From Ginglymostoma cirratum (lineage: Eukaryota), in assembly GCA_024137785.1 (NCBI GenBank), contig JAHRHZ010000028.1:27569847-27633846 (forward strand): a stretch of 64,000 bases of DNA, given 5' to 3'. Shown piece by piece: positions 12,977 to 53,019 of the stretch. Position numbers and translations under genes: made by a program. Below the pieces are notes generated by a model. That model worked only from the letters and a program-made list of their open reading frames with translations, searched no databases and was not told the origin of the DNA. Each line of letters begins with the position of its first letter. Position 1 is the first letter of the stretch.

Positions 12977-13156
12977 CTAGGATTTGAATTGCAGCGCTGC
13001 ATATTCCACTGATTCTGAAGAATTGATCTTGATGTTTTCTTTTTGCTGTTTCAAATCCTTTAAGTTAGCATAAGTTACAGAATCTTCCTTTGTTTGAGCA
13101 GATGGTTGAAGGGTCATAGTGGAATGAATGACAGTGTCTTCCCTTTCCCTGTCAGA
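12977..13156 (-). CDS. Gene B (CD300/pIgR-like, 2 IgV) exon 7: terminal cytoplasmic exon with ITIMs
   Basis: Acceptor tctttattttag, phase 0. SDREREDTVIHSTMTLQPSAQTKEDSVTYANLKDLKQQKENIKINSSESVEYAALQFKS*. ITIM-type VTYANL (13061-13078) and VEYAAL (12992-13009). Aligns to the gene A last exon. Confidence 0.9.
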   Translation of the reverse strand, partial: SDREREDTVIHSTMTLQPSAQTKEDSVTYANLKDLKQQKENIKINSSESVEYAALQFKS

Positions 13157-14812
13157 CTAAAATAAAGACCTCATTCACACTTGGACCAGTAACAAAGACG
13201 TGGTGATAAAGTATGAAAATTGACATTGAATGACATTACCATCACTGAAACTCCCACCATCAATATTTGGGAGTTACTATTGTCAAGGAACTGAACTGAA
13301 TCAACCCTAGATCTATTGCAGCTATAAGTAAAAGCAAATCACCGTAGTTGCAGAGGACCAGACTGCTGCTTGTTTATTAGAAAGTTTTAACCTGAGGCTC
13401 ACGATGACTTGGGAGGGGGAGGGGGGGTGGGGGGAGGAGGTTGAAGTTGGTGACCTCATCCGGTATGAAAATTAAACCGACACTAGCTGTTGCTTTGCAG
13501 CTAGCTGGTCCAGCCACCTGAACTAACTGACCTCGATGATGGAGTTTGGGGATGCAAAAATGCACTTACTCAAAACAGAGTTGTCAAACTCTGGCTGATT
13601 GCCTGTCAGCCTACAAGGCATAAGTTAGGAGTGTGATCACATCAGAATACTACTCCACTCCCGCCCCCCCTACCTCCAGTCCCTAGTTTGTTGATTGCAG
13701 CTTCAACAGTATTTAAGAAATGTGGTACTGTCCAGGACAAAACACCCACATGTTTGGCACTCTATCAAACACCCTCAATATTCAAATACGGGGGAATACT
13801 GCGGTGCTGGAGATCTGAAATAAAAACACAATGCTGGAGAAGCTCAGTAGATCAATTTTTGCTATCTCTATCGCTGGTGCTATCCTGCTGACCTTCTCCA
13901 GCATTTTCTGTTTTTGTTACCTTCAGCATATATTTGCTGCATCACTGATGCGCAGAGCCATTAATGTGTACCATCTATAAAATTCACTGCAGCAACTCGC
14001 TAAGAAACATTTCTTCTCATTTTTCTTGCCATTGCTCTTCAGTACGTTGAACAGTATGCACAAAATGCCCCAGTGACTGTGTCTACGCAACTTGGAGAGA
14101 GCATTGTCAGTAAAGCTCCTTCAATGGCTGCTTCCAAATCAGCAGCCTACCACCTAGAAATTAAACGGCATCAGATACATGGATTCAGTGCACTGTGCAG
14201 GTTCCCCTCCAAGGTTCACACCATCCTGTTTTGGAACATATCCCTTCACTGGCACTGGGTCAAATACTGGAATTCCTTCCCTAACAGAATTAAGGGTGAA
14301 CCAATGCCAGACAGACTGTAGAGATTCAAGTCAGAGGCCGATCAGCTTCTCTGAGCAGAACCTCTTGCAGCAACGCTTGCCTTTATGTCTGTGAGGATGA
14401 GTAATTCCACATTTACCTCAATTTTTCCACTAATCCCATGACGTTGAACTTAATAAAAGTCTATCATTGGAGTATCTTGTCAAAATTCAATTTGTATTCC
14501 TTCACCGGATGCTTAGACCAGCATTTATTGCCTGTCTTTTATTGCTCTTGAGAATATAATGGTGAGTGAATTGATTTGAATCTCTGCAGTCTTTCAGATG
14601 TGGGTACGTCCACAGTGCAGTCGGGAAGTGAGTTTCTATGTTTAATCCAGTAACAGTGAATAAGCAGCAATATAGTTCCACATCAGGATGGTGTATGGTT
14701 TGGAGGGGAATTGGAGATGGTGGTTTTCAACGCCAATAAATATAATGCTTCACAGAGTAATTGCAAGATAAGTGGAACAATAGCCATAGTCTTAGATGCC
14801 TTCTCTTCTTAC

Positions 14813-14853
14813 CTTTCTAGTCATGTCTGGGATTTCTGGATTTTCATTTTTAG
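14813..14853 (-). CDS. Gene B exon 6: short cytoplasmic exon
   Basis: attttgcag| AKNENPEIPDMTRK |gtaagaag. 41 nt, phase 1->0, exactly bridging the TM exon to the ITIM exon. Confidence 0.8.
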
Positions 14854-16450
14854 CTGCAAAATAAAATACAAACGATTCACTTCCAACAGGGTTACTTTCA
14901 TTCGTTCTCACCACAGTAGTTTTGTTCTATTCTAGTTTGAAATATAAACCACTGCAAAAACCTCAATCTCTCACTCTGTTTCACACTTACACTCAGCCAC
15001 CCACATCAAGCCAACCACGTCTTCTAACCTACTCTAGGAAGCTCCAATTACTTGCTATTTCCGAGCTGTATGATGGTAAACCACTTCCTTCAAGATGTTA
15101 AGGAAAATTTTTGGTTTGCGGTGTCTTTCAACTTGATAATTTGAACTCCGATAATTTCATCTGCTAATGGTGGTAACCTGTTTCTGAAAACATTGTGTGA
15201 CAACTCTGAGGCATGCAAGCTCTTCACTGCTTCCAATGCAATGCATATCTTACAAGATAGAAATTTAAATTATATTGTAAATTATGGAGGTATGCTAGAG
15301 TTTAATCTGAATCAGCAAGACCAAATCACGGCCTTCAATCAATTGAATAACTTCAGATGTTCTTCTAAAGTGTGTGTATGATCATCAGTTTACTCTAGAT
15401 GTTTTGATTTTACTCATTTCATTCTTTATAAAATATTTAATAAAGAATAGTGGAAGATGGATTTTGAAATAATTTTCAGATAATATATTGTAAAAACATT
15501 TGAAGCTTTAAATGTTCACTCCCATCTTTTCCAGCAAACTGTGTATCAGCTATAAGTTGCACTGATAAACTTTGCCACAGCACCTTCCAAATCCACAACC
15601 GCTACCATTCAGAAGGACAAAGGTGGCCTTGCACCAGAATAGTACCACCTTCAAGTTACCCTCCAACCTACACAGCATCCTGATTTGGCACCACCTCACT
15701 GTTGTCTGAAAATATTTGTTCATGGGATGTGAGGCCAACATTCCATGAACATCCCTGTGTGCCTGGAGGAAGTGTCTTCTTGAATTACTGCAACTCATTT
15801 AGAGTATGTACACCACAGAGCTGAAAGGAAGGGAGTTCCAGAATTTTGATCCACTGACGATGAAAGATGTTAGTATGCATCTTTGAACCCAAGCCTCCTG
15901 GCCATGAATTTGGACACATTATGCACAAGAAGCCTAATAAATGATCGCAGTAGGTCAGACTTTGGAGAAGTAATTTCCCCATTTAATTGTCGTTGTAAGT
16001 GAATAGCACAAACTGAGTTCAAACATCCCAATGGCTTAAATGACTGTAGGTATCGATTGCCCTCAGCATTAGCTCCAGGAGGTGTTCTTCAGTTACCTGT
16101 TGGTCTTGGACCTAAGTGGGGCTCACCAGATTGTCACCTTGATAGACCTAATTGAGTATAAGTCACCTATGTGATGATAGCCTCTGTCACATTAACCCCA
16201 CTTTGAACAAGAGTACTCTGAGGCAGGTAGGATTCTGGTAGCCAAACCTACACACTACTTTGTACCTTTGCTCCTGGTCCTATTTCCCAAATCACTTGTG
16301 TAGAACAGTGAAAATTTTGCCCTATTTGTTTATGATTGGGTGGTAATTATTTTCAATATTATATCAACATTTTACTATTGTCTGTTCAGGAATCAGTTTC
16401 TGATTTTCCATGCTGATTTATTGCAGAAAAATATTTCCTTGGCTACATAC

Positions 16451-16569
16451 CCTCATTTCCTGCTCTTTTTGTCACTTTTCTTTTCCACATAAACAGAATC
16501 AGCAGCGATAAGATTAACAGTCCCAACAAAACAGCGAGGATGATGTACCATATTTGCGGGGTGATATTG
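16451..16569 (-). CDS. Gene B exon 5: transmembrane exon
   Basis: ttttcttttag| (S)NITPQIWYIILAVLLGLLILSLLILFMWKRKVTKRAGNE |gtatgt. 119 nt, phase 2->1. Uncharged TM with basic stop-transfer. Confidence 0.9.
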
Positions 16570-16719
16570 CTAAAAGAAAATGAAGCAGAGCTGATTAAAT
16601 TGAAGCTTTGTGGACTCAATAGAACAATGCAAAAATATATAAACACTTATTGGATGTAAACTAGATAGAGGAATTGGTTTTAAACCCAATTATCTCTGAA
16701 TTGGAAGATGTGTTATGTT

Positions 16720-17055
16720 CCTGTGCCTCTACGCCTACCTTGAAGATGCATTGCAGCAACCTGTTAAAGCTTCTTCAGTAGTACCTTCCAAACGCATAAT
16801 GTCTACCCCTTTAAAAGGTAAAGGCAGCACCACCATCTGCGTGTTCCCTTCCAGGACACGCACCATCTTGACTTTGAACTATATTCCTTCAAAATCCTGG
16901 AGCTCCCTTCCATAATAAAATTGTGGGAAGTACTGACATCATGTGGGCTGCAACAGCTCAAGAGGGTAGCTCACTGCTACCTTCTCAAGGTCAGTGAAGG
17001 CTGGGAAATGAATGCTGGCCTTGTCCATGATGCCCACAGCTTGTGAATGAATAAC
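16720..17055 (+). mobile_element. L2-type LINE 3' fragment
   Basis: caccaccatctgcgtgttcccttcc...aaaatcctggagctcccttcc...gctggccttgtccatgatgcccacagcttgtgaatgaat. Related fragments at about 14130-14350, 15530-15670 and 18830-19000. Confidence 0.55.
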
Positions 17056-17378
17056 GCACTGGGTTGAAGTGCAGCTTTCTCACGGTGAACAGAAATGAGA
17101 AACAAGTAGGAACGCAGAGCTTATTGTCAATTGAATGATTGCTGTCAGGACCTATATACATTTTGCTACCTGCCTTTGACAGTGGTATTAATTGAGGAAA
17201 AACAGTTAGGAGCAGAATTATGAGGAAAGCTATGGCACCAAAAAGGGTATGAGCCCTCTGCTAGTTTTTTTTTTATCACCTAACGTTGCTGTGTATGGTG
17301 AAGAGACCAGAACTATCCATCAACTTCAATCAGAATGACCCAAAAATGATTATTCTAAGAAAACTATTAAAATGTTAC

Positions 17379-17412
17379 CTTGGGGTGTCGATGGAAACTG
17401 CTGGAATCCCCA
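17379..17412 (-). CDS. Gene B exon 4: short stalk
   Basis: tttctttgcaacag| VGIPAVSIDTP(S) |gtaaca. 34 nt, phase 1->2, as required to join IgV2 (phase 1) to the TM exon (phase 2). Confidence 0.75.
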
Positions 17413-19365
17413 CTGTTGCAAAGAAACATGAATAAATAACTGAATGAATAACAGAAAACCATCAACAATACAAGCATAACTTTGCTCCTTAGCACACCAC
17501 AAAAGAAGTACGATAGCAGTTGATTGGGTGGGGGTGAATGGGAGGGGGATGTTCAGCGGTTGTGTGGCAAGGGGGAGGGGTATATTTGGTTTTGGGGGCG
17601 AAGCAGAGGAGGGTAGTGACTGGTGGAGGTGAATGGAAAGGTTCTGTTTTGGAGGGATACAGGAGGAGAGGAAGGGGAATGATGACTGGTGAGGGTGGAG
17701 AGAGGTGGGTATGTTGAGTGGTGTGAGTGGTTAACTGGTGGAGGGGGAATACGTTCAGTAATTCTGAACATTAGCAGTTTAAGATTCCTTAAGGCAATTG
17801 CTCAAATCAGGATGGTAAAGAAAAATTGGTTGAATGAATGTCTTTGCCTTTATAGGGTCATGAAATCTTGTGAAAGGGAAATGATGGAGAGTTAGATTCA
17901 AGGGAGACCCAGTGGGAGGAAAGGCAGGGGGTAATGTCAGGGCATCGTGAAATGGAGGGGTTCCTAGCAGCCCTTGGGGGGATTTAAAAATAATAGAAGT
18001 CTACATTTGTCAGGGCCCTCAGTGTGGAGGGGAATTAGTGCTGCAAATGCGGCTCTTATCTCCATTTGTTTCCATGAATTAGGGATTGGGTAGAGACCGT
18101 CATAGCCTCAAGGCCTGTCATTTGGAGATGCACATAGTTGCTGGACCTGTACCTCACTGGTGCATGGAGAATGGAATGGTCCAGCACCAAGAAAAATGCC
18201 ACTGGCTTTTGAAAATATCTGCTCTGTCAACTCCTAGTTGGCTTCATTATTATTCCATCTCCACGGAGTAGGTAGATGATTCCTATGGGGTCCTGCCCAG
18301 GGAAATTCACCCAGAGGGTGGGACAGCAGTCAGAGGTGACTTGAACCAAAGCTGTCTGCATGCCCCTCCCCTACCACCACAATCACCACCACTGCAGAGC
18401 AGAGAAGATCCTGCCCAGAGTGATGAAACCACCTGGCCATGACCACATTCTCTGCAAACTTAGCCTCTTGCGCACAGAAATGCTACAGTATACCTCACTG
18501 TCCATGTGGCACTTGAGGATCCATTCAAAAATGTGGGTGAATTTACCACAAAGCTGCCTCAATATCTTTTTCCTCCTTCTTCCATGACTGGACTGAGATA
18601 CAGCACTGGGCCAGTAACTGGAAGAAAGAGTAATTATCCAGGGACATAGATTGCTCATCCTGAACTGGTATTATTTGAAAGTAATTACAATGTCTGTTTT
18701 ATATCTAATTTCAGATACTGATTCATTTGCTGTGTGTTATATATTACAGCAAATAATAATTTAACTGAAGTCTAAGGTATGTGAATGTTTAGCATCCTAT
18801 CAAGGTTTAGGATTACATCCTTTACTGTCGCTGATTAAGATCCAAGAACTCTGTCCCTAACAACTCCACCCTTTGAGGAGGTGTTCCTACATCATGTGAC
18901 ACGTCATGTGACAGCAGTGGTCAAGAAGGCAGCAACATCACCTTCTCAAAAGTAATTTGGGATGGACAATAAAACCTGGCCTTGCCCATGTCCCTATGAA
19001 TGAGAAAAGCAGGGATGTCCGCATTTACAGTGGAGGCAAAATCTAAATGTCTTTAATCTAAAATAGTTACTAAATATTCAATAAGAATTTCAGGCAGAAT
19101 ATTCTTTACCTGGAGAATTGTCAGAATGTGGAAGTTGCTTAATACTGAACTTATTCACACAGGAAGTCCTTGAGGCAAGAACGGGCAGTGAAGGAAACAC
19201 ATTGAGATGTCGTGGAGTAAGAGAAGGATGTGTTGTAAGGGTGAAATGACATAGGGCTGGAGAAGGTGCTTGTGAAGCATGAACACTGGCATTGACCAAT
19301 TGTGTCTATTCTGCTAAGTGCTATGGATAACCAACTGAATTATATAATTTCAAGTTGATTCTTAC

Positions 19366-19695
19366 CACCAACAATTGTCAGGTTTTTAACCTGTGTGATC
19401 TTTACGTCATTTATTTTTACTGATGCACACCAATACAGTCCTTCATCTGCTTTACTGGTATTACTCATAATAATTGTAAAATTTTGAGACTTGTTTGTCA
19501 TGATTGAAACTCTCCCTTTATACTTATTTCCTATATTTTTGTTCGAATCGGCGATAACAGTGCACTTATTTACAGAGGTTACTTTACAAAATAATTTCTT
19601 ATAGTCTATCTCCTCCTGTTGTGTGTACAGACATGATACAGTCGTGGTATTTTCCATTACATTATTGATCTCTGTTGGGATGGATTCCTCTGAAT
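19366..19695 (-). CDS. Gene B exon 3: IgV domain 2 (CD300/pIgR type)
   Basis: ccaacag|...|gtaag, 330 nt, phase 1->1. DSEESIPTEINNVMENTTTVSCLYTQQEEIDYKKLFCKVTSVNKCTVIADSNKNIGNKYKGRVSIMTNKSQNFTIIMSNTSKADEGLYWCASVKINDVKITQVKNLTIVG. Contains CxY, FCx7C, GRVS and DxGxYWC. Confidence 0.92.
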
Positions 19696-20397
19696 CTGTT
19701 GGTAAATGTGAAAAAGAAAGTCATTAAAACTAAAGAATGAAGAAAAGCTGAATAATCTTAATTACAAAAAAATCTAAAATAAATGAGGTAAATGTTGAGA
19801 ATGTTAAAAATGTTTTCTGTTTTTAAATACAAACAGAATTTTAGAGTCTTAGAGCCCACTGTGAGCATTGAAAGCTCTTGTGTTCATTGTTCATGTTACA
19901 TTTTAAATTGTGTATATTTTCCACTATACGTGGGAGATATGTTTGTCCAAGTTTGGTAATTCCTTCTTGTTCTCCATAACTCCAATAAAAATGCTTAAAG
20001 GACTGTTTCTGGGAGGAGCAGACCAGTTTTTGTTTTAAGTTACTACACCAGATATAGAGTTGATCATTTATTTTAAATTGTGTTTCAGTAGCAGTAAAGA
20101 GTGCTTACTCTCAAGTTGAGGCTAATTTCTCACAGGAGACCATCGTGTATCATAGATGCAATGTAACTAGCTATTAAGCAATATGTAGTAAACCTATTTA
20201 TTGTTCATCAAAATTGAACATATCTTTGACCAAAACCTTTCTTGTGGGGATCCTATGGTGGCAGTATCTTATGCCAGTATCAGTGAGATGTTCACCTACT
20301 CAAAGCTGCTTAGTCACACAATTTTACAGAAGCATTTGGATACAGGGACCTGTGTTGATCTTTTCATAAACTGGACTCATATTCTGTAGCACACCAG

Positions 20398-21370
20398 TGT
20401 TGTGAAGTTGGGTAAAGTACTTGTGGATTGGGAGGCAGGTAGTTAGAATTTGGTGTTTGTAAAATGCTAGGTGGGGTGTGGGGGTTGGAAGCATTGCATG
20501 GTCTCTTTACAAGATCTTGTGTTTTTTCTGTACTTAGAAGTTTAAATAGATGTCTGTGTGCAGCAGCTTGAAAGTTTGCAAGTATACAGAGAACATCTGA
20601 ATTGAAACATTTATATTAATAGACCATACAGTTAGCAGGCCAAGTAGCAGTTTTTGCCAAGACAACAAGCTTTTGAATTTAGCCAATCAATTTGAACCAT
20701 GTACTTAGATACCAAAGTCCAATCAAATTTAAATCTGATGGTTTTGACAACATAGGACCAACCTTATTGTAAGAAATATTGATATGTCATCAAGGGTATA
20801 AAAAGAAGGGGACAGTGGACCAAGACAGCTGAGCTAGCTGCCATCTGCCAGAGCTAACAGCCCTCAACTCCGAAGAAAGAATTGCTGGCCCTCACAGCCT
20901 CTTCTATGTCTTGGAGAAAGCACCATCTAAATAACAATGGTACCAATGGCACAACTAGTTAATATTCCTGACAGAAGAATCGATGGAGAAGACACAGAAC
21001 ATTCCGGAAGACCCGTAACCTGGCTGCAATTTTGAGAGACTAAATTCTTTTTTTTTCATATAAGTAGGAATTGGATTTATTGGAACAGCATACCATTAGA
21101 ATCCCATTTTATTCAGGAATAGTTAGTAGTTAGAAGGGATTTATTCAATTTGTTAATAGTTTAGTTAATTTGTTTGCTGTTAGAGTTGGTAAATAAATTG
21201 CTACTTGTTGATTTTAAAGTGAGTGTCTGGGATTTATTTTGTTTAACCACTGGAAGTTGCTAAAAGGCGGTTACACCTCACACTCCCTTGTACAGATTAT
21301 AGGGCAAGGTGCTCTTCTTTGGGTCTTTTGGTTTTAGTTCTCAGAGGGGATCAACCTTCACTTTATAGCA
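20398..21370 (+). mobile_element. Probable solo LTR in gene B intron 2, antisense to the gene
   Basis: Begins TGTTGTG and ends ...TAGCA. CCAAT boxes near 20684 and 20719, TATAAAA near 20796, AATAAA near 21192. Flanks ccag/ccac form an imperfect 4-bp TSD. Confidence 0.5.
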
Positions 21371-21450
21371 CCACCCTGAAGATTGGTAGGCCTGGTGTTA
21401 CTGCACCCAGATGACATTATCAGCCTTATTATCTTCTGAAATACTCTTAC

Positions 21451-21774
21451 CTGTAAAAACCTTCAATAATGTAACATCTGAAACAATGATGGAACCTTGA
21501 TCTTCTGCTCCCCACCAGTACGTTCCTGTATCTTTCTTCTGAAGAGATTGCATGGTAACAGAAATTGACCCATGTGCTTCAGAGATGGATGTTGTACTTT
21601 GAACATTTTTGTTCATACCTTTTTTAAGGTGTACTATAACATGGCATTCAGCTTCCGAATATGTTTTACACCAGATTGCAACGTGTCTTCCATTCCATTT
21701 CCATGGAAATTTGACAGTGATATTTTTCCTTGCTGCAGCTTTCAACACTGTCCATGTATTTTCTGTCCATGAAG
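21451..21774 (-). CDS. Gene B exon 2: atypical IgV domain 1 lacking the canonical B-F disulfide
   Basis: cacaatag|...|gtaag, 324 nt, phase 1->1, open. TSWTENTWTVLKAAARKNITVKFPWKWNGRHVAIWCKTYSEAECHVIVHLKKGMNKNVQSTTSISEAHGSISVTMQSLQKKDTGTYWWGAEDQGSIIVSDVTLLKVFT. Retains WCx7C and L-x3-D-T-G-x-Y-W. Confidence 0.88.
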
Positions 21775-21899
21775 CTATTGTGTGAAATGTTACAAATAAC
21801 CGGGAATTAAATTACAATAATCAATTTTAGACAATTGTTTTGAAACGTCACAAACAACAATAGCAAATGTTTCACCAAGGGGAAGAAGAAAAGGTGCTG

Positions 21900-23120
21900 G
21901 AAGAGAATGGAATCTTCAAATCTTAGAGCAAAGCAGGAGTCATTTGGCCTTTTGTGTGTGTGCCAACTCTTTAAAGAGCTGGTCAAATTAATCCCACACC
22001 TAGATTCCTCCATAACCCTCATCTTCAAATAGGTATCCAAATGCCTTTTGAAAATTTCTGTGGAATCTGACTTCCTTACTTCTTCAGGAAATGCAATCCA
22101 GATCCTAACAATCTTCTCTATGAAATAATTTCTCTTTATTTCTCCACTAATGTTTATACTGATAATTTTAAATCACTGGTTACAAATCTACTTGCCAAAT
22201 GACATTTTTCCCTACTTGCTGCATCAAAATCCTTTCTAGTTTTCACTACCTGGATTAGTTTCCCCCTACCTGCACTAAAGAACAACAATCTTGAGTTTAA
22301 GAACGTAAGAACTTGGAGCAGGAATAGACTATTCTATTGAGCCTGAAACGCCATTGAATATGATCATGGCTGATCTCATCTTGGCCTCAGATCCACTTTC
22401 TGGCTTGCTGTCCATGATGCTTCAACTCATTACTAATTAAAACTCTGTCATTCTCCTCCTTAAATTTATTCAATGTTCGGGGATCCACTTGCTTTGGCCA
22501 CAGATTCACAACCATTTGAGAGGAGTAATTTTTCCTCACTTCTGTTTTAAATTTGCTACTCTCTATCTCAAACCAATGACCTCTCATTCTAGATTGCCCA
22601 AATGAAAAATCCTTTCTCTGTCTACTTTTGTAACTAGATCTCCTCTCATTCTTCTAAACTCCAGACAGGACAAATTGCTCCTAAATTGCTCAATCTCTCT
22701 ACAGAAGACAATCTTCTCTAATCTCTTCACATAAACAACCACCATCATCCCTGATATCAACCTGGTGAATGTCTGTGCCTTGGTCTGCTCCTCGACGTTC
22801 CTAAAGTGTGGTCCCATAATTTAACACAGTTCTTCAGCTGAAGCATATCATCTGCTTAGTAAAAGTTTAGCATGATTTTGTCTTTTTCTATTCAGTGTGA
22901 CTATTTACACATCCAAGAATCCCATAACTGCCTTGTCAACTTGCTCTGCTACCTGAATGAATGGGCACCCCCCCAGGACCCTCAGGTCGTGCACACCCCC
23001 ATCCCCCTCAGTCGTTCCATTTAGGCTATTGTGTTCCTCCACATTGTTCTTCTCTCGAAGTGCATTAATTCGCACTTACCTACAGTATATTGCATCTGCC
23101 GTGTGTCTATCCCTTTCACC
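21900..23120 (-). mobile_element. Degraded CR1 LINE 3' fragments
   Basis: Minus-strand ORF remnants LEFRRMRGDL and RGHWFEI...FKTEVRKNYSSQMVVNLW; CR1 3' tail near 22300-22390. Confidence 0.7.
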
Positions 23121-24104
23121 TAATAACAAAGAAATGTCCATTTGTCCTCTGTTTTTGTTCTTTGGACATTGGGAACCCAAAAGTCAGCTCTACTGAGCAA
23201 CGTCACTAATGTGGCTTGAGGAATGAGACATGGAACCCATCTGAGATGGATCTAGCAAGGATCAGAAGCCAGTCAATAAGAGCTTTGTGGAATTTAGTGC
23301 ATCATTCCAAATCCATAGAAGTACTGCCTATAAATATTTATGAGATTGATCTATAGAGCTATGATGATGACTTTAAGTGATGAAGGAAGCTACTGCTTGG
23401 TTTTAACATTGACTGTTCTGGTTACTACAATTATTCAAATGGTTCTTCCTCTGGGAGGCAGGAGAGGGTACGTGTTTTGTTTGGTGGTCCTTTTGATTAT
23501 ACAGCAGAATAACAGAATTATTCAGCTCACTGTACTTGAACTAACTCTTCAAATAAGAATCACTACCTCGTGCCAAATCTCCTGTTTTTCTCCATATTTT
23601 TGCGCACAACTTTTATCCAAATAATCATCCAGTGCCTTCTTCAATGCCTCAATTGTACTTCCCTCTGTTACAGTTCTGGGTAGTACATTCCTTTATAGCT
23701 TGTACCGATCTCCTTAAATTCCTGTAATGTCCTATAATACAACACCATTCCCTTCCCTGAGGGAATTCTACTTCTCCGAATCTAGCTTCATCCGCTCCCA
23801 CTGCGCCACTAATAGTAGGTCTGTTTTCAATGAGGTCCAACTTTCTGGAACTCCACAGTTAAAACCCTTGCCCTCACCAACTCCTTCTCTGATTCGCAAC
23901 CTATTTCCACACTGCAGGGAGGGATTCTATTTAAAGCCGTCTCTTCAACAAAGCTAGTAATCCGAACACCCAATTTCCCCTTCTCTCGCGCAGAAAAAAA
24001 TGTTTCTCTTCCTTCTCTGTTAAGAAGTTTGAGCCAGTTTTCTAAGATGAAGACACTACATAAGTGCGAGCAGTGATTCCAAATATAGAAGAAAAAAATC
24101 TTAC

Positions 24105-24144
24105 TTGATATCAGACTGAGGACCAGCAGTGCAGTGAACTTCAT
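24105..24144 (-). CDS. Gene B exon 1: signal peptide
   Basis: ggaaccATG MKFTALLVLSLIS+A |gtaaga. 40-nt phase-1 leader with good Kozak context. Confidence 0.88.
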
Positions 24145-24197
24145 GGTTCCAGTGAAGTTATCCACAGTTTTCAGTGCAATACATGTATCTCTGTGTC

Positions 24198-24246
24198 TAT
24201 TTAAGGATCTATGCTGAATCATTTACTTCCTTATAGAATTGCAAAT
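24198..24246 (-). promoter_or_regulatory. Putative gene B core promoter: Ets site, AP-1-like site, TATA-like box
   Basis: Minus strand: AGGAAGT (24225-24231), TGATTCA (24215-24221), TTAAATA (24198-24204), 54-87 nt upstream of the ATG. Further GAGGAAGT at 24322-24329. Confidence 0.45.
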
Positions 24247-27489: not shown

Positions 27490-27523
27490 ATTGATGTTTC
27501 GGGCCTAAACCCTTCATCAGAAA
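27490..27523 (-). ncRNA. Minimal type-I hammerhead ribozyme motif (G16.2->A)
   Basis: ttt-CTGATGA-a-GGGT-ttag-GCCC-GAAAC-ATC-aat on the minus strand. Confidence 0.65.
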
Positions 27524-41947: not shown

Positions 41948-42359
41948 TTTCAATTTCAACATATGCCTTCAATATTGCTATACCTGTGGCTGTAGAAATT
42001 TACAGGCATTAAATTTGGATTAAAGGCTTTGCCTTTCAGAGGCCTGGTGTTGAACAGGCAGACCATTTGACGGCGATCAGAGACTTGTGTCTCTGATATT
42101 AAAAACACCCTTTCAATCCACCAAGTCTGGGAATAATTGTTTCTAAATTTAGGACTGATAAAGTTACTGAAACTTGATATCTACCTTGATACAATTACTA
42201 TTTCAAATATTCAATGGGAAATTTACATGAAGTTTAAGAGACAGTACAGTAACTCAATATATGGGTGATCTGTTGGTCGTTAAAAAACACTAGGGCTTTA
42301 TTATATGGCCCTGAGCAGCTGAACTGAGCTGGAGTTAAAGCCAGTCCCTTAAAGCTCAG

Positions 42360-44070
42360 CCAGGGAAGACATTTGAATAAGTAAATGAATAGGAAAGGTT
42401 TGCAGGGATATATGCCAAGAACAGGCAGGTGGGACTAGTTTAGTTTGGGATTAGGGTCGGACTGGACAGGTTGGACTGAAGGGTCTGTTTCTCTATGACT
42501 TCACAGGCTAAATGTGTATTGGTAACAAGATATCGTCGAGCCATAGAGTCATACAGCGTGGAAACAGTCACTTCAGTTCAACCTGTCCGTGCCGACCATA
42601 ATCCAAACTGAACTAGCCCCACCTGCCTGCTTCTGGCCCATATCCCTCCAAACACTTCTTATTCATGCACTTATCAAGAGGTCTTTTAAACTTTGTAACT
42701 GTACCCGCATCCATCGCTTCCTCTGGAAACTTACTCCACACACAAACCACACTCTGCGTAAAAAAGTTGCCCCTTGTGTCTTTTTTAAATCTTTCTTCTC
42801 ACCTTAAAAATATGCCCCCGGTCTTGAAATACCCTGCCTTAGGGAAAGGACACCTGCTATTCACTTTCTCTGTACCCCTCATGATTTTATAAACCTCTAT
42901 AAGGTCACCCCTCAACCTCCTATGCTCCAGTGAAAACATCCCAGTCTATCCAGCCTCTCCTTACAACTCAAATCTTCCATTCCCAGTAATAATCTGGCAA
43001 ATCTCTTCTGAACCCTCTCCAGCTTAATAATGTCCTTCCTATAACAGAGAGGTCAGAACTGGATATAAAACACCAGAAAATGCCTCACCAACGTCCTGTG
43101 AAGCATCAACATAACATTCTAAGTCTTATATTCAAAGATCTGAGCAAAGAAGGCAAGCATACTAAATACTTAAGTACCCTACCTATATGTGATGCAAACT
43201 TCGAAGAATTATGCGCCTGAATCCCTTGGTCTCTCTGTTCTACAACACTACCCAAGGCCTTACTTTTAATTGTATAAGCACCACCCTTATTTGTTTTACT
43301 AAATGCAATATCTTGCATTTATCTGAATTAAAATCCATTTGTCACTCTTCAGCCCATTGACCCAATTGATCAAGATCTCTTAGTAATCTTTGATTACCTT
43401 CTTCACTGTCCACCATGCCACTAATCTTGGTGTCAACCACAAACTTACTAACCATGCCTCCTATATTCTCATCTAAATCATTTATATAAATGACAAATAA
43501 AAGAGGTTCCAGCACTGATCCTTTTGGAACACCGCTGGTCACAGTCCTCCAGTCCGAAAAACAACCCTCCACCATCACTCTGTCTCCTGTTGTTAAGCCA
43601 ATTTTGTACCCAATTGGCAAGTTCACCTTGAATCCCATATGATCTAACTTTACTCATTAGTCTACCGTGTGGAACCTTGTCAAAGGCTTTATTAAAGTCC
43701 AAGTAAACAATGTCTACTGCTCTATCCTTCAGTCTTCTTTGGTATATACTCAAAAATCTCAATCAAGTTTTTCAGACACCTTTTTCCTTGCAAAAAAACC
43801 GTGTTGATTATCCCCAATCATTCCTTGGCTCCCCAAATGCATACAAATGCTATCTTTCAGAATCGCTTCCAACAACTTAGCCGCCACCAAAGTCAGGCTC
43901 ATAGATCTGTGGTTCCCAGGTCGATCCTTACATCCCTTCTTAAACAAAGGCACAAGATTAGCTACTCTCCAGTCGTCAGGCATCTCACTCAGTTATAGAT
44001 AATGCAAGTATGACTGCAAGGGGCCCTGCAATTTTTTTCCCTAATTTTCCACAAATTCCTGGGTTGAATC
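42360..44070 (-). mobile_element. CR1 LINE RT fragment (minus, 42545-44070) with a short opposing CR1 3' end (42360-42505)
   Basis: PDDWRVANLVPLFKKG, VDIVYLDFNKAFDKVPH, VTSGVPKGSVLEPLLFVIYINDLD, SKFVVDTKI. Confidence 0.92.
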
Positions 44071-44356
44071 AAAAAAATGTGATACCTCATCAAGTGGCCC
44101 AGCAGGTGGCTTTCAATCTTCTTCTGACAGCAGGATAATAAGGATACTTATGTCAACTCATCTGTCTTCCAGCTCAATCACTAACCACTGGCTTTTCCGT
44201 GTTTTTGATTTTGCAGCCCCACCTTATTCCACTGTGCGCTTGATGACCTGAGCTTTACTGTAGATTGTATTGGCCTCTCCCTGAGCATTTTAAAGATGAT
44301 GTGTTCATATCATGGTAAAGATGTACTGCATAGATTTCAATGTTTCAGAGACAAAC

Positions 44357-44465
44357 CTGGGTGAGCTGATGGTGGCAGAGGATGTGGTCAGATCCGTTGT
44401 AAAATGAGACTGAGTAGTTCCTGCGACGCTGCTGGTTGGTTCCAGTGTCGAGCTCCATGTAGGCA
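44357..44465 (-). CDS. Gene A Ser/Thr-rich mucin-like stalk exon
   Basis: gctcctttatag| VPTWSSTLEPTSSVAGTTQSHFTTDLTTSSATISSP(S) |gtttgt. 109 nt, phase 1->2, matching the IgV and TM exons; about half S/T. Confidence 0.85.
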
Positions 44466-44823
44466 CTATAAAGGAGCAACTTGTTGAGTATGGTTGAAAT
44501 TATGTTCCCCAGTGAGTTCACTCCCCTCAATGGAATCACTTAAAAATCATAGTTAATCATTCCTTCAACATTATATTTCCACATTATATTGCTTTTGTTG
44601 CAAATGACTAGATCATTCTGGGGTTAAAGGAAATGATTGCATTACCAGCATTAGACTATTATACAATTGGATAAATTCAGAGGCAATTGCAACAAAATAC
44701 ACACAAACTGAGTGTGAGCTGAGAGATTACAACACTAGTTGCACCAATGTATCCGGTTTTAGCCATTCCTGTGCGAGTGAGTTGACAATTTGCTCACAAA
44801 GTATTTGACTGACAATGGGGCAG

Positions 44824-45640
44824 TGTTATGATCCCAGTTCATGTTTTTACAGGACAGGTCAGATCCCAGACAGAAATCTGGCTTCATGGATCATATTTTT
44901 TTCCGTTTGAGTGTAGTGATGTATTCACTAACTGAAACAGATACACACAATACAGCAGATCTTGTTTTAACTATAAAGTAGAATGTTATTAACAAACTAA
45001 AAGAAGATTAGGTAGAATAAAGAAAACTATCGGCTTTTAATACAAAGATGTTAAAGTGTGCAGCAAAAGTTTAATGGCATGAATTCCAAGAATTTCCTGT
45101 TTAAATTGAAAATGGAAAGAACAGCTTTTGTACAATACTGAAAACACATCTGCACATAATGGTGCAGAATTGGTTGAAACTATAAAGTAGAATTTTATTA
45201 ACAAACTAAATGAAGGCAAAATAGAATAAACCAAACTATCAGCTTACAAAACAAATTGAAACATATTACAGCACACAGTAACAGTATAACCCCGTTCGTT
45301 TCAAATTGAAAAGGAAAGTAACAGCCTTCTTTCAGTATAAAAGCACATCTTGTGCAGTCATCGGAACACCACATAGACAGTACTCCTGCTAGAGTCACTA
45401 TCTCTATGCAGATAAATTCTTCCTGGAGCTATTAGATACGGGAGTACAAAAGTATTCAGCCTTACATAACCTCTTGAGGGTTTTAGTCCAATGCTACTGG
45501 TCTGGGACAAACATCAACTCCTTACTCTAAGATAATCTAGTTTCACAACATCCTTCCCTTCTCAGGAGCATTGGTCTGCAGAACCAACTTCCTGGAAGAA
45601 CTTCACAGGACCGCCCAAAAGTCAAAGTAAAAAGCAAAAC
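44824..45640. mobile_element. LTR-like remnant with an internal diverged duplication
   Basis: Starts tgttatga. aactataaagtagaat.ttattaacaaactaaa...tagaataaa..aaactatc.gctt is duplicated at about 44969-45037 and 45178-45246. Confidence 0.35.
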
Positions 45641-46704
45641 TCAAACTTAAAATGAATGATATGAAAAGAAAAATTATGTATATACCTGACATTTGCATGG
45701 CAGGAAGTAGCACAGTTTGATGTTACCAGTCTCCTGGAGTTGTGCTGGGAGGTGGAGAGTTTGGAAAATCACAGGCAAGGTGAGGGTACGGAAGACCAAT
45801 AATTTCCCATTGCTGAGGGATATTACCAGCAGCAGGATCCTGAGCAGCCAATAGATAATTAAACCAATAACTCGTCCAGATTTGGGATATCACAATCCAT
45901 ATGAAATCAAATGACATCAGGAGGGTGAACTGTTGAGTTGGGAACCCATCAAGATAAACACCTGAGCCTTCAGTGGACACTCCATCACAGTCAGTCCGAG
46001 ACACATGGCACTCCTGCAGCCCCCACCACATTTCATCAGCAATGGTTGACCTTGCTATTGAGGATGCTTCAGGCTTGGATTGTATATTCCGACCGTCCTT
46101 GTAGCGTCACCAATAGCCATCTCTATGCATGGTACTATCCTTCTCAATTAGACAATGACCCTAATGACAGGCAAAATGCCACCCAAGGTCCTGCCGTGTG
46201 CCGAACTGTTACGAGGGTAATATCTGAGCCAGTCTCCACATTGGGACCATGGGGATCCGGGAGAAATGGGAGGAAAGGCTGGCGAGCTACAGGGGTTAAG
46301 GGCTGTGTAGCACATAGTCTGACTGTCTCCTAGTGCCCATCCCCTTGGTGAGGTCTCCAGCTGATTGCCTTGGGGTATGGTCCTGCTTCAGTCCTGGCAG
46401 CTGGTCCAAACTTGAAGTGAGAACATTTTGGCCATGAACAGAACAGCTGCCTGCTTAAGCTTCCCATTTGGGAAAGGTTTTCCCAATCTGTTTCCCCTCT
46501 CTCTTTCCTAATGGAGTGGAAGGATCTTGCTCTGGGAATTCAGTATTCCCAGGATTTGGACACTTGAGTATATGAGTGTCCACCCCTGTGGGGAGCTCAG
46601 GATTTGTCACAGGGTCACTATCAGAGCAGAGCTGAGGGTATCTCTGATTTCAAATGTTTCATTTTGGGCAAAGCAGACAAAGTAGAAATACACAATCATC
46701 TTAC

Positions 46705-47022
46705 CTTCAAAAACTTCTAATTTGAACGAAACCCTCTCATTTAGCAAAAATGTTTCTATAACACACCAGTATCGTCCTTCATCACTCTTCATCAGTTTGT
46801 CTACGGTTACTGAGAATATGCTGTGTTTTTTGTCATCAGTCATTGATACTCTTCCACTTTGTGGGTTATTAGTCGAAACAATAACAGAGCAATGGATGTA
46901 ATGATAACCTTTACACCAGTATTTCTCCTTTTCCTTGTAGCTCTGATCATATTTGCACTCGGCAGTGAGTGATCCTCCTACTTCTCCATGAATGTCCCCG
47001 GGCCCAGTTAATTGACGTGAAC
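46705..47022 (-). CDS. Gene A IgV exon (canonical CD300/CMRF35/pIgR-type V domain)
   Basis: cacaatag|...|gtaaga, 318 nt, phase 1->1. SSRQLTGPGDIHGEVGGSLTAECKYDQSYKEKEKYWCKGYHYIHCSVIVSTNNPQSGRVSMTDDKKHSIFSVTVDKLMKSDEGRYWCVIETFLLNERVSFKLEVFE. Contains GGS-x4-CxY, KYWCx7C, GRVS, FSV and DxGxYWC. Confidence 0.95.
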
Positions 47023-47160
47023 CTATTGTGATATAACAATGAATGATTATTAATATCTATGCAAGAGATAAGAAACATAATATTTAATGAAATAAGAACT
47101 CCTGTTTCATTATTGTAGCAACCTCCCTTATATTTAGATGTCAAACTAGATTATCAACAC

Positions 47161-47312
47161 AGAGATAGTAAGAACTGCCGATGCTGGAGTCAGAGATAAC
47201 AGAGTGTGGAGCTGGATGAACACAGCAGGCCAGGCAGCGTCAGAGGAACAGGAAAGCTGACGTTTGGTGTCGGGACCTTTCATCTTTACTTCTGAAGAAA
47301 TGTCAGCTTTTC
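47161..47312 (-). mobile_element. PLE-derived mini-element with decayed hammerhead
   Basis: Same family as 31006-31138 (gagatagtaagaactgccgatgctggag...gaacacagcaggcc). Confidence 0.75.
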
Positions 47313-47939
47313 AATACTGAGTTTTCCTCATACTGAGTGACATTCACCGAAGCTGTCACACGTATTATTGTGTAAATCCAGGTTTTACTCCAACAGTGTT
47401 GAAAAGCGAGCGAGTGATTACCTTTTGGGCAAGTGCTTTATGGGAAGATTGTTGATGATATGATTGATTTATCTTCTCCATTTACACTGATCCTTGGAAT
47501 TGAGAAGATGAACGAAGCTCACTCGAGGTGAATTCCTCCATTCCTTCTCACTCGTTTCTCAGTCTGCCCATTTCTAAGTGCACAGAAAATTGTGGGTGTT
47601 GGGGTAGGCCTGGCAAATGGAAGCTTCTGGCCACACGTGCTTTCTGTTTGCTGAATCGACCGAGCACTCGCTCAAGGTGCCAATGGAAAACACAGCCCCT
47701 GGCTTGTCAATGGCTTTCCCAAAAATATTGACTTGTTTAATTGTTCCTCCAATCAATTATTCCTTGTGAAAGAAGACAGGCAGTTGACCTTGTTGGAGCC
47801 TGTTGTCACTTTTCATCAGCGAGTGAGACTGTGGATTGATGGGCCATACGCTGGTATTCTATCCTTACTAACATTAAGTAGTTTGTTTACATGGAGGTAA
47901 TCAGTGACTTGGATTGAAGTTGCTTTATAGTTTCATCGA

Positions 47940-49240
47940 GTCATAGCATCATGCAGCATGCGACAGACCCTTCATTCCAACTCTTCCACACCGACCATGT
48001 ACCCAAACTAAATTAATGCCAGTTGCCTGTATTTAGCTCATATTCCTCCAAACCTTTCCTATTCATGTGCTCATCCAAATGTCTTTTACGTGTCATAACT
48101 GACCCTGCATACACCACTTTTTCTCTGGTGAATCATTGCACACACGGACCAAACCCTGTGTAAAAAATTTACCCCTCATGTCCTTTTTAAATCTTTCGCC
48201 TCTCAACTTAAAAATATGGCCCCCCTAGTTTTGAATGCCCCCACCCGAGGGAAATGACCATTGTTATTCATCTTATCTATGCCTTTCATGATTTTATAAA
48301 CCTTGATAAGGTCACCCATCAACCTCTTATGTTCCAGTGGAAAAGTGTCCCAGCACATCCAGTTTATATCCATGACTCAAACCTTCTATTTCCGGCAACA
48401 TCCTGTGAATTTTTTCTGAACCCTCTCCATTTTCATAATATCCTTCCTCTAACAGGGTGACCCAAACTGCACAAAGTATTCCAGAAGAGGCCTCACCAAC
48501 ATCCTATGTACCTGAACATGACATCCCAACTGTTGTATTCCAAAGTCTGAGCAATGAAGTCAAACTTGCTAACCATCTTCTTAACCACCCTGTCTACCTA
48601 TGATGCAAATTTCAAAGAATTATGTTCTGGAACCCCTCAGTCTTTCTGTTCCACAACACTACCCAAGGCTGTACCATTAATTGTATAAGTCCAGCCCTTG
48701 TTTGCTTTCCCAAAATGCAATACCTTACATTTATCCAAATCAAACTCCATTTGCCACTGCTCAGCTGAGCGACCCAATTGATCAAGATTGTATTCTGAGT
48801 TAGCCTTTTTCACTGACCACTATACTACCAATCTCGGTGTCATCGGTGAGCTTACTAACCATGCTCCAATATGTTAATCCAAATTGTTTGTATAAATGAC
48901 AAACAAAAGTGTCCCCAGTACCGATCCCTGTGGAATCCCATCGTTCACAGGCCTTCAGTCTGAAAAACAGCCTTTTACCACCACACTCTGTTTCTTACAA
49001 TAAAACCAATTCCGTGTCAAATTGGCAATCTCACCGTGAATTTCTTGTGGTCCAACTTTGCTAATCAGCCAACTGTGCAAATCTTTGTCAAAAGCTTTGC
49101 TGAAGTCCATATAAACAATGTCTATTACTCTGCCCTCAGTCTTTTTTGTAACTTCCACAAAAAAACTCAATCAAGTTCATGAGACACAATTTCCCACCAC
49201 AAAACTATGCTGCTTATTTCAAATCAATCCTTGTCTCTCA
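47940..49240 (-). mobile_element. CR1 LINE RT 3' fragment
   Basis: IDIVYMDFSKAFDK; CR1 tail; similar to 42545-44070. Confidence 0.88.
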
Positions 49241-49676
49241 GAACGCAGTTAGGTATCGAGTGATGGTGCATAATTTTGAAGGAGGCATGATATTGGATCG
49301 AATGGATCCTGTGCCTAATTTTACAATTTGAAATATTATTTCATAAATTCTTTCCAAGAATGCAGCCCCCACTGACACCCATGTTGCTCCTCTGTAATTA
49401 TCCCTGAGCTGAGTACATTGAGAATTTCTAAAGCAATTGTGCATCAACCAGATTGCTGTAGGTCTGGAATCACACATCGGCTGGCAGATTTCCTTCCCTA
49501 AAGGGTCTGATAGATGTTCAGATTTGTAAAGTTCGAATGTCTCCATCCACCATTGAGTGATTTGAGCCTAAGCCTTTGGATGACACATTGATGAACAACA
49601 CGGTTGTACTATTCCCCTCCCTTCCCTGAAGCACTTTGGGTGGTTTTAGGTGCTACTTCAAAGAAAAGCTTGCAGT

Positions 49677-49933
49677 TGAAGGTAGACAAAGAGGAGGCTG
49701 GAAGAACACAGCAGGACAGACAGCACCTGGGTGAAAGGGGCAGTCAACATTTTGGGATTAACCCGCCTTCCAAATTGTTTATATAAGTGAAAAACACAGT
49801 TGAATCCTCCTGAAGGGTAATATCTGAAACATTTATTGCTCCTTTCCTCCAGATGCTACCTGGCCTGCTGTGTTCTTCCAGCCTCCTCTTTGTCTACCTT
49901 GGATTCCAGCACCTGGAGCTTTTTTGTCTCGAA
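49677..49933. mobile_element. Fold-back PLE-derived mini-element, 13-bp TSD
   Basis: Inverted arms ggtagacaaagaggaggctggaagaacacagcagg / cctgctgtgttcttccagcctcctctttgtctacc. TSD aaaagcttgcagt at 49664-49676 and 49934-49946. Confidence 0.8.
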
Positions 49934-50993
49934 AAAAGCTTGCAGTGTGTTTTACTGTGTTTTCACTGACAAGGAACTCTCCTTTCAGACAGGACAAAAA
50001 CATGCGGGTGCAATGGAGTCCCACAGAAAGAAGCAAACCAGGCAAAACCAGGCTGGCGATGCTGGAGAAGCAGACTGATGTCAACCACAGTAACAGCTTT
50101 CTAAAGAAAGTGTCAGTGACTTTGCATGAACTCATCTCAACAATCCTCCCCGACACCTCATTTTTACTCCAGAAGTCCAGTCCCTGTACACCTGTATTCC
50201 CCATGCAGATGGACCAAAGGCCCTCCGCATCTTCCTGTCCTGCAGAACTGACCAATCCCCCTCCACTGACACCCTCATCCGCTTAGCCGAACTCGTCCTC
50301 ACCCTCTGCAACTTCTCTTTCAATTCCTCCCACTTCCTACAGACAAAGGGAATGGCCATGGGTACCCGCATGGGCCCAAGCTATGCCTGCCTCTTTGTAG
50401 GTTACGTGGAACAATCCCTCTTCCGTACCTACACTGCCCCTAAACCCCACCTCTTCCTCCGTTACATTGATGACTGTATCGGCGCCGCCTCGTGCTCCCA
50501 CGAGGAGCTCGAACAGTTGATCCACTTCACCAACAGCTTCCACCCCAACCTGAAGTTCAGCTGGACCTTCTCCAACACTTCTCTCTCCTTCCTGGACCTC
50601 TCTGTCTCCATCTCGGGTAACCACCTAGAAACCGATGTCCATTTCAAGCCCACTGACTCCCACAGCTACCTGGAATACACCTCCTCCCACCCACCTTCCT
50701 GCAAAAATGCCATCCCCTATTCCCAATTCCTTTGCCTCCGCCGCATCTGCTCCCAGGATGAGGCATTCCACTCCCGCACATCTCAGATGTCCTCATTCTT
50801 CAAGGACCGCAACTTCCCCCCTGCAGTGGTCGAGAACGCCCTTGACCGTGTCTCCCGCACTTCCCCGCAACTCATCCCTCACACCCCGTCCCCGGAATAA
50901 TAACCAAAAAAGAATCCCCCTCGTCCTCACGTTCCACCCCACCAACCTCCGGATCCAACGCATCATCCTCCGACACTTCCGCCATCTGCAATC

Positions 50994-51393
50994 NNNNNNN
51001 NNNNNNNNNNNNNNNNNNNNNNNNNNNNNNNNNNNNNNNNNNNNNNNNNNNNNNNNNNNNNNNNNNNNNNNNNNNNNNNNNNNNNNNNNNNNNNNNNNNN
51101 NNNNNNNNNNNNNNNNNNNNNNNNNNNNNNNNNNNNNNNNNNNNNNNNNNNNNNNNNNNNNNNNNNNNNNNNNNNNNNNNNNNNNNNNNNNNNNNNNNNN
51201 NNNNNNNNNNNNNNNNNNNNNNNNNNNNNNNNNNNNNNNNNNNNNNNNNNNNNNNNNNNNNNNNNNNNNNNNNNNNNNNNNNNNNNNNNNNNNNNNNNNN
51301 NNNNNNNNNNNNNNNNNNNNNNNNNNNNNNNNNNNNNNNNNNNNNNNNNNNNNNNNNNNNNNNNNNNNNNNNNNNNNNNNNNNNNNNNNNNNN
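50994..51393. other. Assembly gap (400 N)
   Basis: Run of N. Confidence 1.
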
Positions 51394-51719
51394 ACATCTC
51401 AAATGTCCTCATTCTTCAAGGACCGCAACTTCCCCCCAACAGTGGTCGAGAACGCCCTCGACCGTGTCTCCCGCATTTCCCGGAACACATCCCTCACGCC
51501 CCGTCCCCGCAACAATAACCAAAAAAGAATCCCCCTCGTCCTCACATACCACCCCACCAACCTCCGGATCCAACGCATCATCCTCCGACACTTCCGCCAT
51601 CTGCAATCAGACCCCACCACCAAAGACATTTTTCCCTCCCCACCCTTGTCTGCCTTCCGGAGGGACCACTCCCTCCGCGACTCCCTTGTCCGCTCCACAC
51701 TCCCCTCCAGCCCCACCAC

Positions 51720-51819
51720 NNNNNNNNNNNNNNNNNNNNNNNNNNNNNNNNNNNNNNNNNNNNNNNNNNNNNNNNNNNNNNNNNNNNNNNNNNNNNNNNN
51801 NNNNNNNNNNNNNNNNNNN
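51720..51819. other. Assembly gap (100 N)
   Basis: Run of N. Confidence 1.
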
Positions 51820-52774
51820 ACAATAATAACCAAAAAAGAATCCCCCTCGTCCTCACGTACCACCCCACCAACCTCCGGATCCAACGCATCATCCTCCGAC
51901 ACTTCCGCCATCTGCAATCTGACCCCACCACCAAAGACATTTTTCCCTCCCCACCCTTATCTGCTTTCCGGAGGGACCACTCTCTCCGTGACTCCCTTGT
52001 CCGCTCCACACTCCCCTCCAGCCCCACCACACCCGGCACTTTTCCCTGCAACCGCAGGAAGTGCTACACCTGCCCCCACACCTCCTCCCTCACCCCAATC
52101 CCAGGCCCCAAGAAGACTTTCCACATCAGGCAGATGTTCACCTGCACATCTGCCAATGTGGTATACTGCATCCGCTGTACCCGTTGTGGCTTCCTCTACA
52201 TCGGGGAAACCAAGCGGAGGCTTGGGGACCGCTTTGCAGAACACCTGCGCTCAGTTCGCAACAAACAACTACACCTCCCAGTCGCGAACCATTTCAACTC
52301 CCCCTCCCATTCCTCAGATGACATGTCCATCCTGGGCCTCCTGCAATGCCACAGTGATGCCACCCGAAGGCTGCAGGAACAGCAAATCATATTCAGCCTG
52401 GGAACCCTGCAGCCCAATGATATCAATGTGGATTTCACAAGCTTCAAAATCTCCCCTCCCCCAACCGCATCCCAAAACCAGCCCAGCTCGTCTCCGCCTC
52501 CCTAACCTGTTCTTCCTCTCACCTATCCCCTCCTCCCACCTCAAGCCCCACCCCCATCTCCTATCTACTAACCTCATCCCGCCCCCTTGACCTGTCCGTC
52601 CTCCCTGGACTGACCTATCTCCTCCCTACCCGCCCACCTACACTCACCTTTACTGGCTCCATCCCCGCCTCTTTGACTTGTCTGCCTCCTCTCCACCTAT
52701 CCTCTCCTCTATCCATCCTCTATCTGTCTCCCCCTCTCTCCCTATTTATTTCAGAACCCTCTTCCACTCCCCCA

Positions 52775-52808
52775 TTTCTGATGAAGGGTCTAGACCCGAA
52801 ACATCAAG
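52775..52808 (+). ncRNA. Hammerhead ribozyme motif in the pLTR of the RT/GIY-YIG-coding PLE
   Basis: TTT-CTGATGA-a-GGGT-ctag-ACCC-GAAAC-ATC-AAG. Confidence 0.7.
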
Positions 52809-52979
52809 CTTTCCTGCTCCTATGATGCTGCTTGGCCTGCTGTGTTCATCCAGCCCCACACCTTGTTATCAACAATCCGACTGATGTCTGTGTCAGGAAA
52901 CATTTCTGGCCTTTCTCAGCTCTTATTACCAAAGTACATTTTATTCATATTAAAGATTCTGGTCTTAAAGAAAACTTAC

Positions 52980-53019
52980 TTGATACAGAGATCAGAATGA
53001 AAAACACAATTGCTTCCAT
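52980..53019 (-). CDS. Gene A exon 1: signal peptide
   Basis: gaagcaATGG (strong Kozak) MEAIVFFILISVS+A |gtaagt. 40-nt phase-1 exon with the same length and 3' end (TATCAA|gtaag) as the gene B leader. Confidence 0.88.

Follow-up and report, generated by a model that had tools for sequence, protein, structure and literature searches.

Genes A and B of a Ginglymostoma cirratum CD300/pIgR-like cluster: intact, probably inhibitory receptors beside a likely decayed activating-type twin

Does a stretch of 64,000 nucleotides from Ginglymostoma cirratum (contig JAHRHZ010000028.1, positions 27,569,847 to 27,633,846 of the forward strand; hereafter the window) encode two working immune receptors, and to which family would they belong? 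The original prediction, made from the letters alone, proposed a tandem pair of inhibitory receptor genes on the minus strand, resembling CD300 and the polymeric immunoglobulin receptor (pIgR). Our analysis gives good reason to regard these genes, here A and B, as intact, adjacent members of a CD300/pIgR-like cluster and as probable inhibitory leukocyte receptors, lying beside what is likely a decayed activating twin. Scanning the window in six frames finds three V-set exons, all of them on the minus strand. When exons are joined by coordinate, gene A comprises six exons (53019 to 30547) and encodes 269 residues, and gene B comprises seven (24144 to 12977) and encodes 355, with no internal stop codon in either; position 53019 is the ATG of gene A and position 12977 the stop of gene B. 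The exons are as follows.

Gene A
52980..53019, minus strand: exon 1, signal peptide, 40 nucleotides (nt); 11 of 14 residues as in zebra-shark P0002
46705..47022, minus strand: exon 2, V-set domain with four cysteines (the B-F pair and the Cx7C pair); Pfam V-set, 1e-11
44357..44465, minus strand: exon 3, Ser/Thr-rich stalk (20 of 37 residues Ser or Thr); matches P0002, P0193 and P0199
37181..37311, minus strand: exon 4, uncharged transmembrane segment
33984..34036, minus strand: exon 5, short cytoplasmic exon, phase 1 to 0; matches P0001, P0002 and P0193
30547..30705, minus strand: exon 6, tail and stop; Tyr224 (VMYSTV), Tyr239 (STYVNL) and Tyr262 (VEYSTI)

Gene B
24105..24144, minus strand: exon 1, signal peptide, 40 nt; 14 of 14 residues as in P0002
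21451..21774, minus strand: exon 2, V-set domain 1, with Phe and Trp at the canonical B-F cysteine positions and the Cx7C pair kept
19366..19695, minus strand: exon 3, V-set domain 2, four cysteines; 102 of 110 residues as in P0002
17379..17412, minus strand: exon 4, short stalk, phase 1 to 2; 11 of 12 residues as in P0002
16451..16569, minus strand: exon 5, uncharged transmembrane segment
14813..14853, minus strand: exon 6, short cytoplasmic exon, phase 1 to 0
12977..13156, minus strand: exon 7, tail and stop; Tyr325 (VTYANL) and Tyr348 (VEYAAL)

All 11 introns have GT-AG borders and consistent phases (1,1,2,1,0 in A and 1,1,1,2,1,0 in B), as had been claimed for these 11 core junctions. The architecture first described is likewise accurate: both genes open with a 40-nt leader exon and close with a short phase 1-to-0 exon followed by a homologous last exon, A being a one-domain receptor on a mucin-like stalk and B a two-domain receptor. 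Each of the three Ig exons reaches the Pfam V-set profile at or above cut-off, and each carries the Cx7C pair, on strands C and C′, which would form a second disulfide bond. The transmembrane cores hold no charged residue. ITIM-type tyrosines (ITIM, immunoreceptor tyrosine-based inhibitory motif) number three in the A tail and two in the B tail, and the last two lie 23 residues apart in both. All three are present in the 8 of 8 A-type tails aligned, whereas relatives of B have three, the first of which is His in the window. Read from sequence, A and B are thus type I membrane proteins with a leader, one uncharged transmembrane segment and an ITIM-type tail. No further Ig exon was seen in the window beyond these three (one search gave 81 extra matches, of which the 45 listed are mostly low-complexity or repeat), and blastn returned no match between A and B at the DNA level.

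The homologues decide that these are genes and not chance frames. Two proteins stood out among the 31 candidates of the first homologue search, whale-shark P0001 and zebra-shark P0002, the latter a RefSeq model in which A and B are fused end to end. Gene A is identical to P0002 at 230 of 269 positions (86%) and gene B at 319 of 355 (90%), both over their full length and without a gap; A also has a stand-alone orthologue, epaulette-shark P0193, again of 269 residues (180 of 269 identical). Because the joined models align in this way, chance is ruled out. That either gene is, as a whole, a pseudogene is rejected. Identities of this order would place the source among the carpet sharks, close to zebra and whale shark but distinct from both, and bear out the original idea of a shark. 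The P-numbered homologues are automated models, which support the choice of exons but are not equivalent to reads. Against P0002, exon 2 of A is identical at 87 of 105 positions, and B domain 2, the transmembrane exons and the tails at 88–95%, with the B tail at 69 of 73; the 88–95% exceeds the 73–86% of the three non-coding stretches that serve below as a rough neutral yardstick. Across sharks and rays, orthologues of A (P0193, P0192, P0202, P0194, P0195 and P0002) are 45–86% identical, and those of B, which include a chimaera (P0003, P0016, P0020, P0005, P0034 and P0002), 34–90%. Skate relatives comprise P0190 and P0237 for A and P0021 for B. Among the 30 of 150 matches for which names were taken, orthologues from many sharks, rays and the elephant shark are annotated as CMRF35-like or pIgR-like. 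A and B are new members, but their family is known and has been annotated in relatives before.

That family is the one originally proposed. In addition to the three Pfam V-set assignments, the best matches among PDB sequences are pIgR and CD300: exon 2 of A matches CLM-1/CD300f at 1.2e-18, with pIgR chains ranking by summed domains, and the same families head the list for the B domains. By domain, second cysteine pair and topology, A and B belong on sequence grounds to the CD300/TREM/pIgR superfamily, with an exception in domain 1 of B, which lacks the canonical B-F cysteines present in the A domain and in B domain 2. B domain 2 has Phe at the C-strand Trp position, as do its relatives.

In an IQ-TREE domain tree of 54 rows, hand-picked from 659 domains and built with no TREM outgroup, starred clades are formed by the A domains (8 rows, 100/99), by B domain 1 (6 rows including chimaera, 97/93) and by B domain 2 (5 rows, 100/94). 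The A group lies in an open 26-row fork (94/86) together with CD300f of alpaca, pIgR of teleosts and CMRF35-like domains of the sturgeon line. The B domains fall outside that fork and sit with pIgR or pIgR-like domains of coelacanth, turtle, bird, caecilian and rabbit, several of them on long branches. A single clade of all A and B domains is rejected by the approximately unbiased (AU) test (p-AU 0.023), a result of moderate weight, as the test was run after the tree had been seen. The tail module also occurs in receptors of coelacanth (P0038) and paddlefish (P0143). Given this rejection and this distribution of the tail, the A-B split is likely older than sharks and not a shark-specific tandem copy. 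The suggestion that an old tandem duplication produced A and B stands insofar as the two are adjacent paralogues, but the rejected clade, the low identity of their Ig domains (26–29%) and the wider occurrence of the tail module qualify it.

What would such receptors do? By analogy with CD300a and CD300f, the V domain would bind a surface ligand, for which the aminophospholipids of dying cells or lipids of microbes are the likeliest candidates. The tail tyrosines of A and B would then be phosphorylated by Src-family kinases, and SHP-1 or SHP-2 would dock on the phosphorylated tails and dampen leukocyte activation. The transmembrane arginine of receptors of this kind couples to an adaptor bearing an immunoreceptor tyrosine-based activation motif (ITAM). 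Other sharks and rays have near-identical ectodomains on a short tail with a transmembrane arginine, and these would couple to such an adaptor. The lineage of the window seems to have retained the inhibitory form and lost the activating one. The definitions of the ITIM consensus and of the short-tailed partner with a charged transmembrane residue follow the available text of PMC12447643, which also describes primates as keeping CD300A and repeatedly losing CD300C. As for the adaptor, the FcR gamma chain was not found in the shark data of 2014, as the accessible part of PMC4016189 has it.

The activating form is represented in the window by two features upstream of A.

62305..62398, minus strand: transmembrane exon of an activating-type paralogue, with Ser at the conserved transmembrane Arg, a codon missing and a stop directly after the transmembrane segment
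60384..60549, minus strand (approximate limits): probable terminal exon of the activating-type paralogue, matching the C-termini of P0227 and P0238

Over 32 positions the transmembrane exon has 72% identity with bamboo-shark P0199, which has an A-type ectodomain; the local score is 102 with the exon, falls to 46 without it and does not exceed 43 in 30 shuffles. The terminal exon matches bamboo-shark P0227 at E 6e-5 and smooth-hound P0238 at E 0.15. In many relatives the protein closes with a short tail behind a transmembrane segment with Arg-Trp, and in white-shark P0186 the ITIM-type A gene has an Arg-type gene immediately upstream. Arg-Trp is found in 12 of the 12 best matches, from 10 species, whereas the twin in the window has Ser-Trp. 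Within some 31 codons its transmembrane exon has taken four lesions, namely Ser in place of Arg, a helix Pro, the loss of a codon and the stop, which points to a twin that has likely decayed. The earlier statement that the window holds no activating partner therefore fails as to sequence, given the exon at 62398-62305, and is probably right as to function. Comparison of 53.1–64 kb with genes A and B gives matches only at many-copy, repeat-like sites. Members from sturgeon (P0120), coelacanth (P0031), caecilian (P0133) and chimaera (P0034) also have the Arg-Trp transmembrane type, which for this reason seems to be an ancient module of the family. An exon at 58.9 kb was considered as the last exon of the activating gene and rejected, the terminal exon mapping to ∼60.5 kb.

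The best surviving alternative is that the gene at 62.4 kb is alive and encodes an uncharged decoy receptor without a tail, which would compete with A for ligand. Its splice acceptor is intact, the stop at the end of the transmembrane segment removes only a short tail, and the terminal exon is still recognizable; the density of lesions and a poor donor behind the stop nevertheless make this unlikely, and word-index searches, a weak test, returned nothing of the Arg type from zebra or whale shark. We keep to a likely decayed twin.

A second question of decay arises within gene B. Both canonical cysteines are present in 17 of 20 aligned rows of B domain 1, which include several isoforms or paralogues, and the Cx7C pair in all 20; this distribution indicates that the loss is derived. 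Epaulette shark retains the F-strand cysteine only, and among the shark, ray and chimaera RefSeq genes both are lost only in zebra shark and the window species. In these same two species the first B tail tyrosine is also lost. The sequences place the loss in two apparent steps within carpet sharks; by the genetic code, Cys to Phe and Cys to Trp take one base each. Absence of both cysteines occurs in 10 of 485 family domains. One of these, the frog Discoglossus pictus member P0014, has the same Phe/Trp pair in its domain 1, together with an Arg-Trp transmembrane segment, and its pair is likely convergent. Folded by AlphaFold2 from a 12-row alignment, B domain 1 of the window gives a V-set model (predicted local distance difference test, pLDDT, 88.6) whose best fold matches are NKp44, TREM2 and CD300c; the prediction is that the domain still folds when the C-C′ bond is its sole disulfide. 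The stepwise series of both cysteines, one and none offers a natural test of what the second disulfide contributes to V-domain stability.

It is improbable, in our estimate, that gene B or its domain 1 is instead decaying under relaxed selection, with domain 1 misfolded or skipped. Relative to zebra shark, domain 1 has indeed diverged more than domain 2 (86 of 107 against 102 of 110 identical; Fisher p=0.009), the neighboring activating gene also looks decayed, and epaulette-shark isoform P0003 drops most of domain 2, from which splicing appears loose. Yet frame and splice sites are intact in three species, Cx7C is never lost in the aligned rows, frog P0014 shares the Phe/Trp pair and the tail is nearly unchanged from zebra shark. 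At 80% identity, B domain 1 stayed free of stops in 18% of substitution-only drift simulations, and at 67% in 6% (400 runs per identity level).

We give equally low credence to gene B as an inhibitory Fc receptor for IgM, IgW or IgNAR, standing in sharks for the lineage that gave rise to pIgR and the Fc-alpha/mu receptor. The B domains do lie on the side of the tree that holds tetrapod pIgR and the pIgR-like domains of turtle, bird and coelacanth, outside the group containing CD300f; pIgR is the top PDB sequence match of both; the chimaera orthologue P0034 bears the automatic RefSeq name "polymeric immunoglobulin receptor"; and two V domains are also the teleost pIgR arrangement. However, the multi-domain pIgR heads the list by summed score with no single domain close, the deep nodes are open or carry long branches, teleost pIgR domains fall on the A side, and ITIM tails with Arg-type twins fit paired leukocyte receptors. 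In pIgR, the segment of domain 1 before the C-strand Trp-Cys binds Ig. The corresponding residues of human pIgR are not conserved across the 20 B domain-1 rows, and pIgR orthology is rejected on this basis. A fuller version, in which B is an IgM-binding inhibitory receptor of a lineage that predates the split of sharks and bony fish and is related to the source of pIgR, its ligand-facing domain remodeled in two steps to the C-C′ bond alone within carpet sharks and the neighboring activating twin lost, we regard as very improbable. The accessible portions of reviews PMC7916673 and PMC4016189 list no Fc receptor or pIgR for cartilaginous fish, and that of PMC4016189 reports no PIGR homologue in shark genomes; gene B is for this reason a cheap candidate for an IgM-binding test with low odds. 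A positive outcome would supply the missing Fc-type receptor of cartilaginous fish.

The fused RefSeq models provide the gene order of the wider cluster. In the direction of transcription, a one-domain ITIM gene (E) precedes a two-domain gene C, C and an Arg-type twin each precede A, and A precedes B. The pairs joined are E and C in zebra-shark P0050, C and A in whale-shark P0001 and in the sevengill and basking shark models P0065 and P0177, the Arg-type gene and A in white-shark P0186, and A and B in zebra-shark P0002. By this order, the window corresponds to the last part of a cluster of about five genes. RefSeq fuses cluster neighbors in five shark species and four different pairings, and frequent read-through transcription in the cluster is possible. 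Gene A ends in two stop codons, and the 5′ region read through by the whale-shark model is one base out of frame in the window, so the simplest reading of the fusions is as chimeras of annotation or as read-through that is not conserved. That A and B form one read-through polyprotein with a signal peptide in its interior and two transmembrane segments, on the pattern of the zebra-shark model, is barely credible and is rejected: fused models do recur (P0002; P0001, P0065 and P0177; P0186; P0050), but the pairs vary by species, stand-alone models of A and B exist (P0193, P0192, P0202, P0194, P0016 and P0020), and the two stops and the frame shift also tell against it.

Several points tell against A and B as intact inhibitory receptors beside a decayed twin. 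All exon junctions are predictions from sequence and homologous models, while ligand, cell type and phosphatase binding rest on analogy. The status of the twin is read from one exon, its upstream exons lying outside the window. Folded as a single sequence, B domain 1 reaches a pLDDT of 50, and its good model leans on relatives that retain the cysteines. As a rough neutral yardstick we took three non-coding stretches that are translated in the fused RefSeq models (73–86% identical); neither the A V domain (83%) nor B domain 1 (80%) is more conserved than this, a level that positive selection and relaxed constraint would fit equally well.

Some smaller features accompany the two genes. Upstream of A, two small minus-strand exons (58846-58917 and 57841-57870) with clear acceptors and GT donors are used by whale-shark P0001 between C and A, and are 87% and 90% identical to it as translated; they probably belong to the 5′ untranslated region of A or to read-through transcripts. 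Intron 1 of A holds retroelement-like open frames (50130-52590) with assembly gaps at 50994-51393 and 51720-51819, and similar repeat fragments occupy most introns. An in-frame ATG upstream of B (24145-24222, minus strand) would place 26 residues ahead of the signal peptide; horn-shark P0005 and zebra-shark P0002 have a similar extension, and the start context is weaker than at 24144. At the left edge of the window, 207-269 on the plus strand is a candidate last coding exon of a convergent neighbor, with 20 codons, a pyrimidine-rich acceptor upstream and a long AT-rich stretch downstream; it has no match in PDB.

The closest comparison is with the RefSeq genes of other sharks, rays and chimaera, which have the same domain order and tail as A and B and are orthologues by tree and by gap-free or nearly gap-free alignment. 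The automated models often fuse neighbors, and the present models separate correctly two shark inhibitory receptors that are fused by automated annotation in their nearest relatives. The description of the family as poorly characterized holds for function, but not for its existence: besides being annotated in many shark and ray genomes, it has been published as MDIR of the clearnose skate (Raja eglanteria), which the accessible text of PMC3031540 presents as a multigene activating and inhibitory cartilaginous-fish family resembling CD300, TREM and pIgR. The shark and ray matches share this multigene character, with ITIM and transmembrane-Arg forms and one to several V domains. None of the named matches is called MDIR, and the likeness of A and B to it is drawn from its description. 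Our literature search, which covered few subscription journals, found no paper on these shark loci.

With pIgR and teleost pIgR-like proteins, B shares tandem V domains and the seven-residue-spaced cysteine pair (available text of PMC9321927; related literature, PMC10801876), while A and B differ from pIgR in their ITIM tails and B in the unconserved domain-1 segment. CD300a and CD300f are like A in their V domain with a C-C′ disulfide, Ser/Thr/Pro-rich stalk, uncharged transmembrane segment and several ITIMs, as described in the consulted part of PMC12447643. A strict definition of CD300, a single V domain on a mucin-like stalk, describes A but not B, with its two V domains. No one-to-one orthology with mammalian CD300 emerges from the tree, in which the A group and CD300f share an open fork. 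The CD300c-type partner, with its short tail, charged transmembrane residue and repeated loss (PMC12447643, same part), has its parallel in the shark twin, although the charge is Glu in mammals and Arg in sharks. To the known family, the window adds a B domain 1 without the canonical disulfide and a likely decayed twin of A, and the comparison as a whole indicates that a paired activating and inhibitory CD300-like cluster, with turnover of its activating member, exists in sharks as it does in primates.

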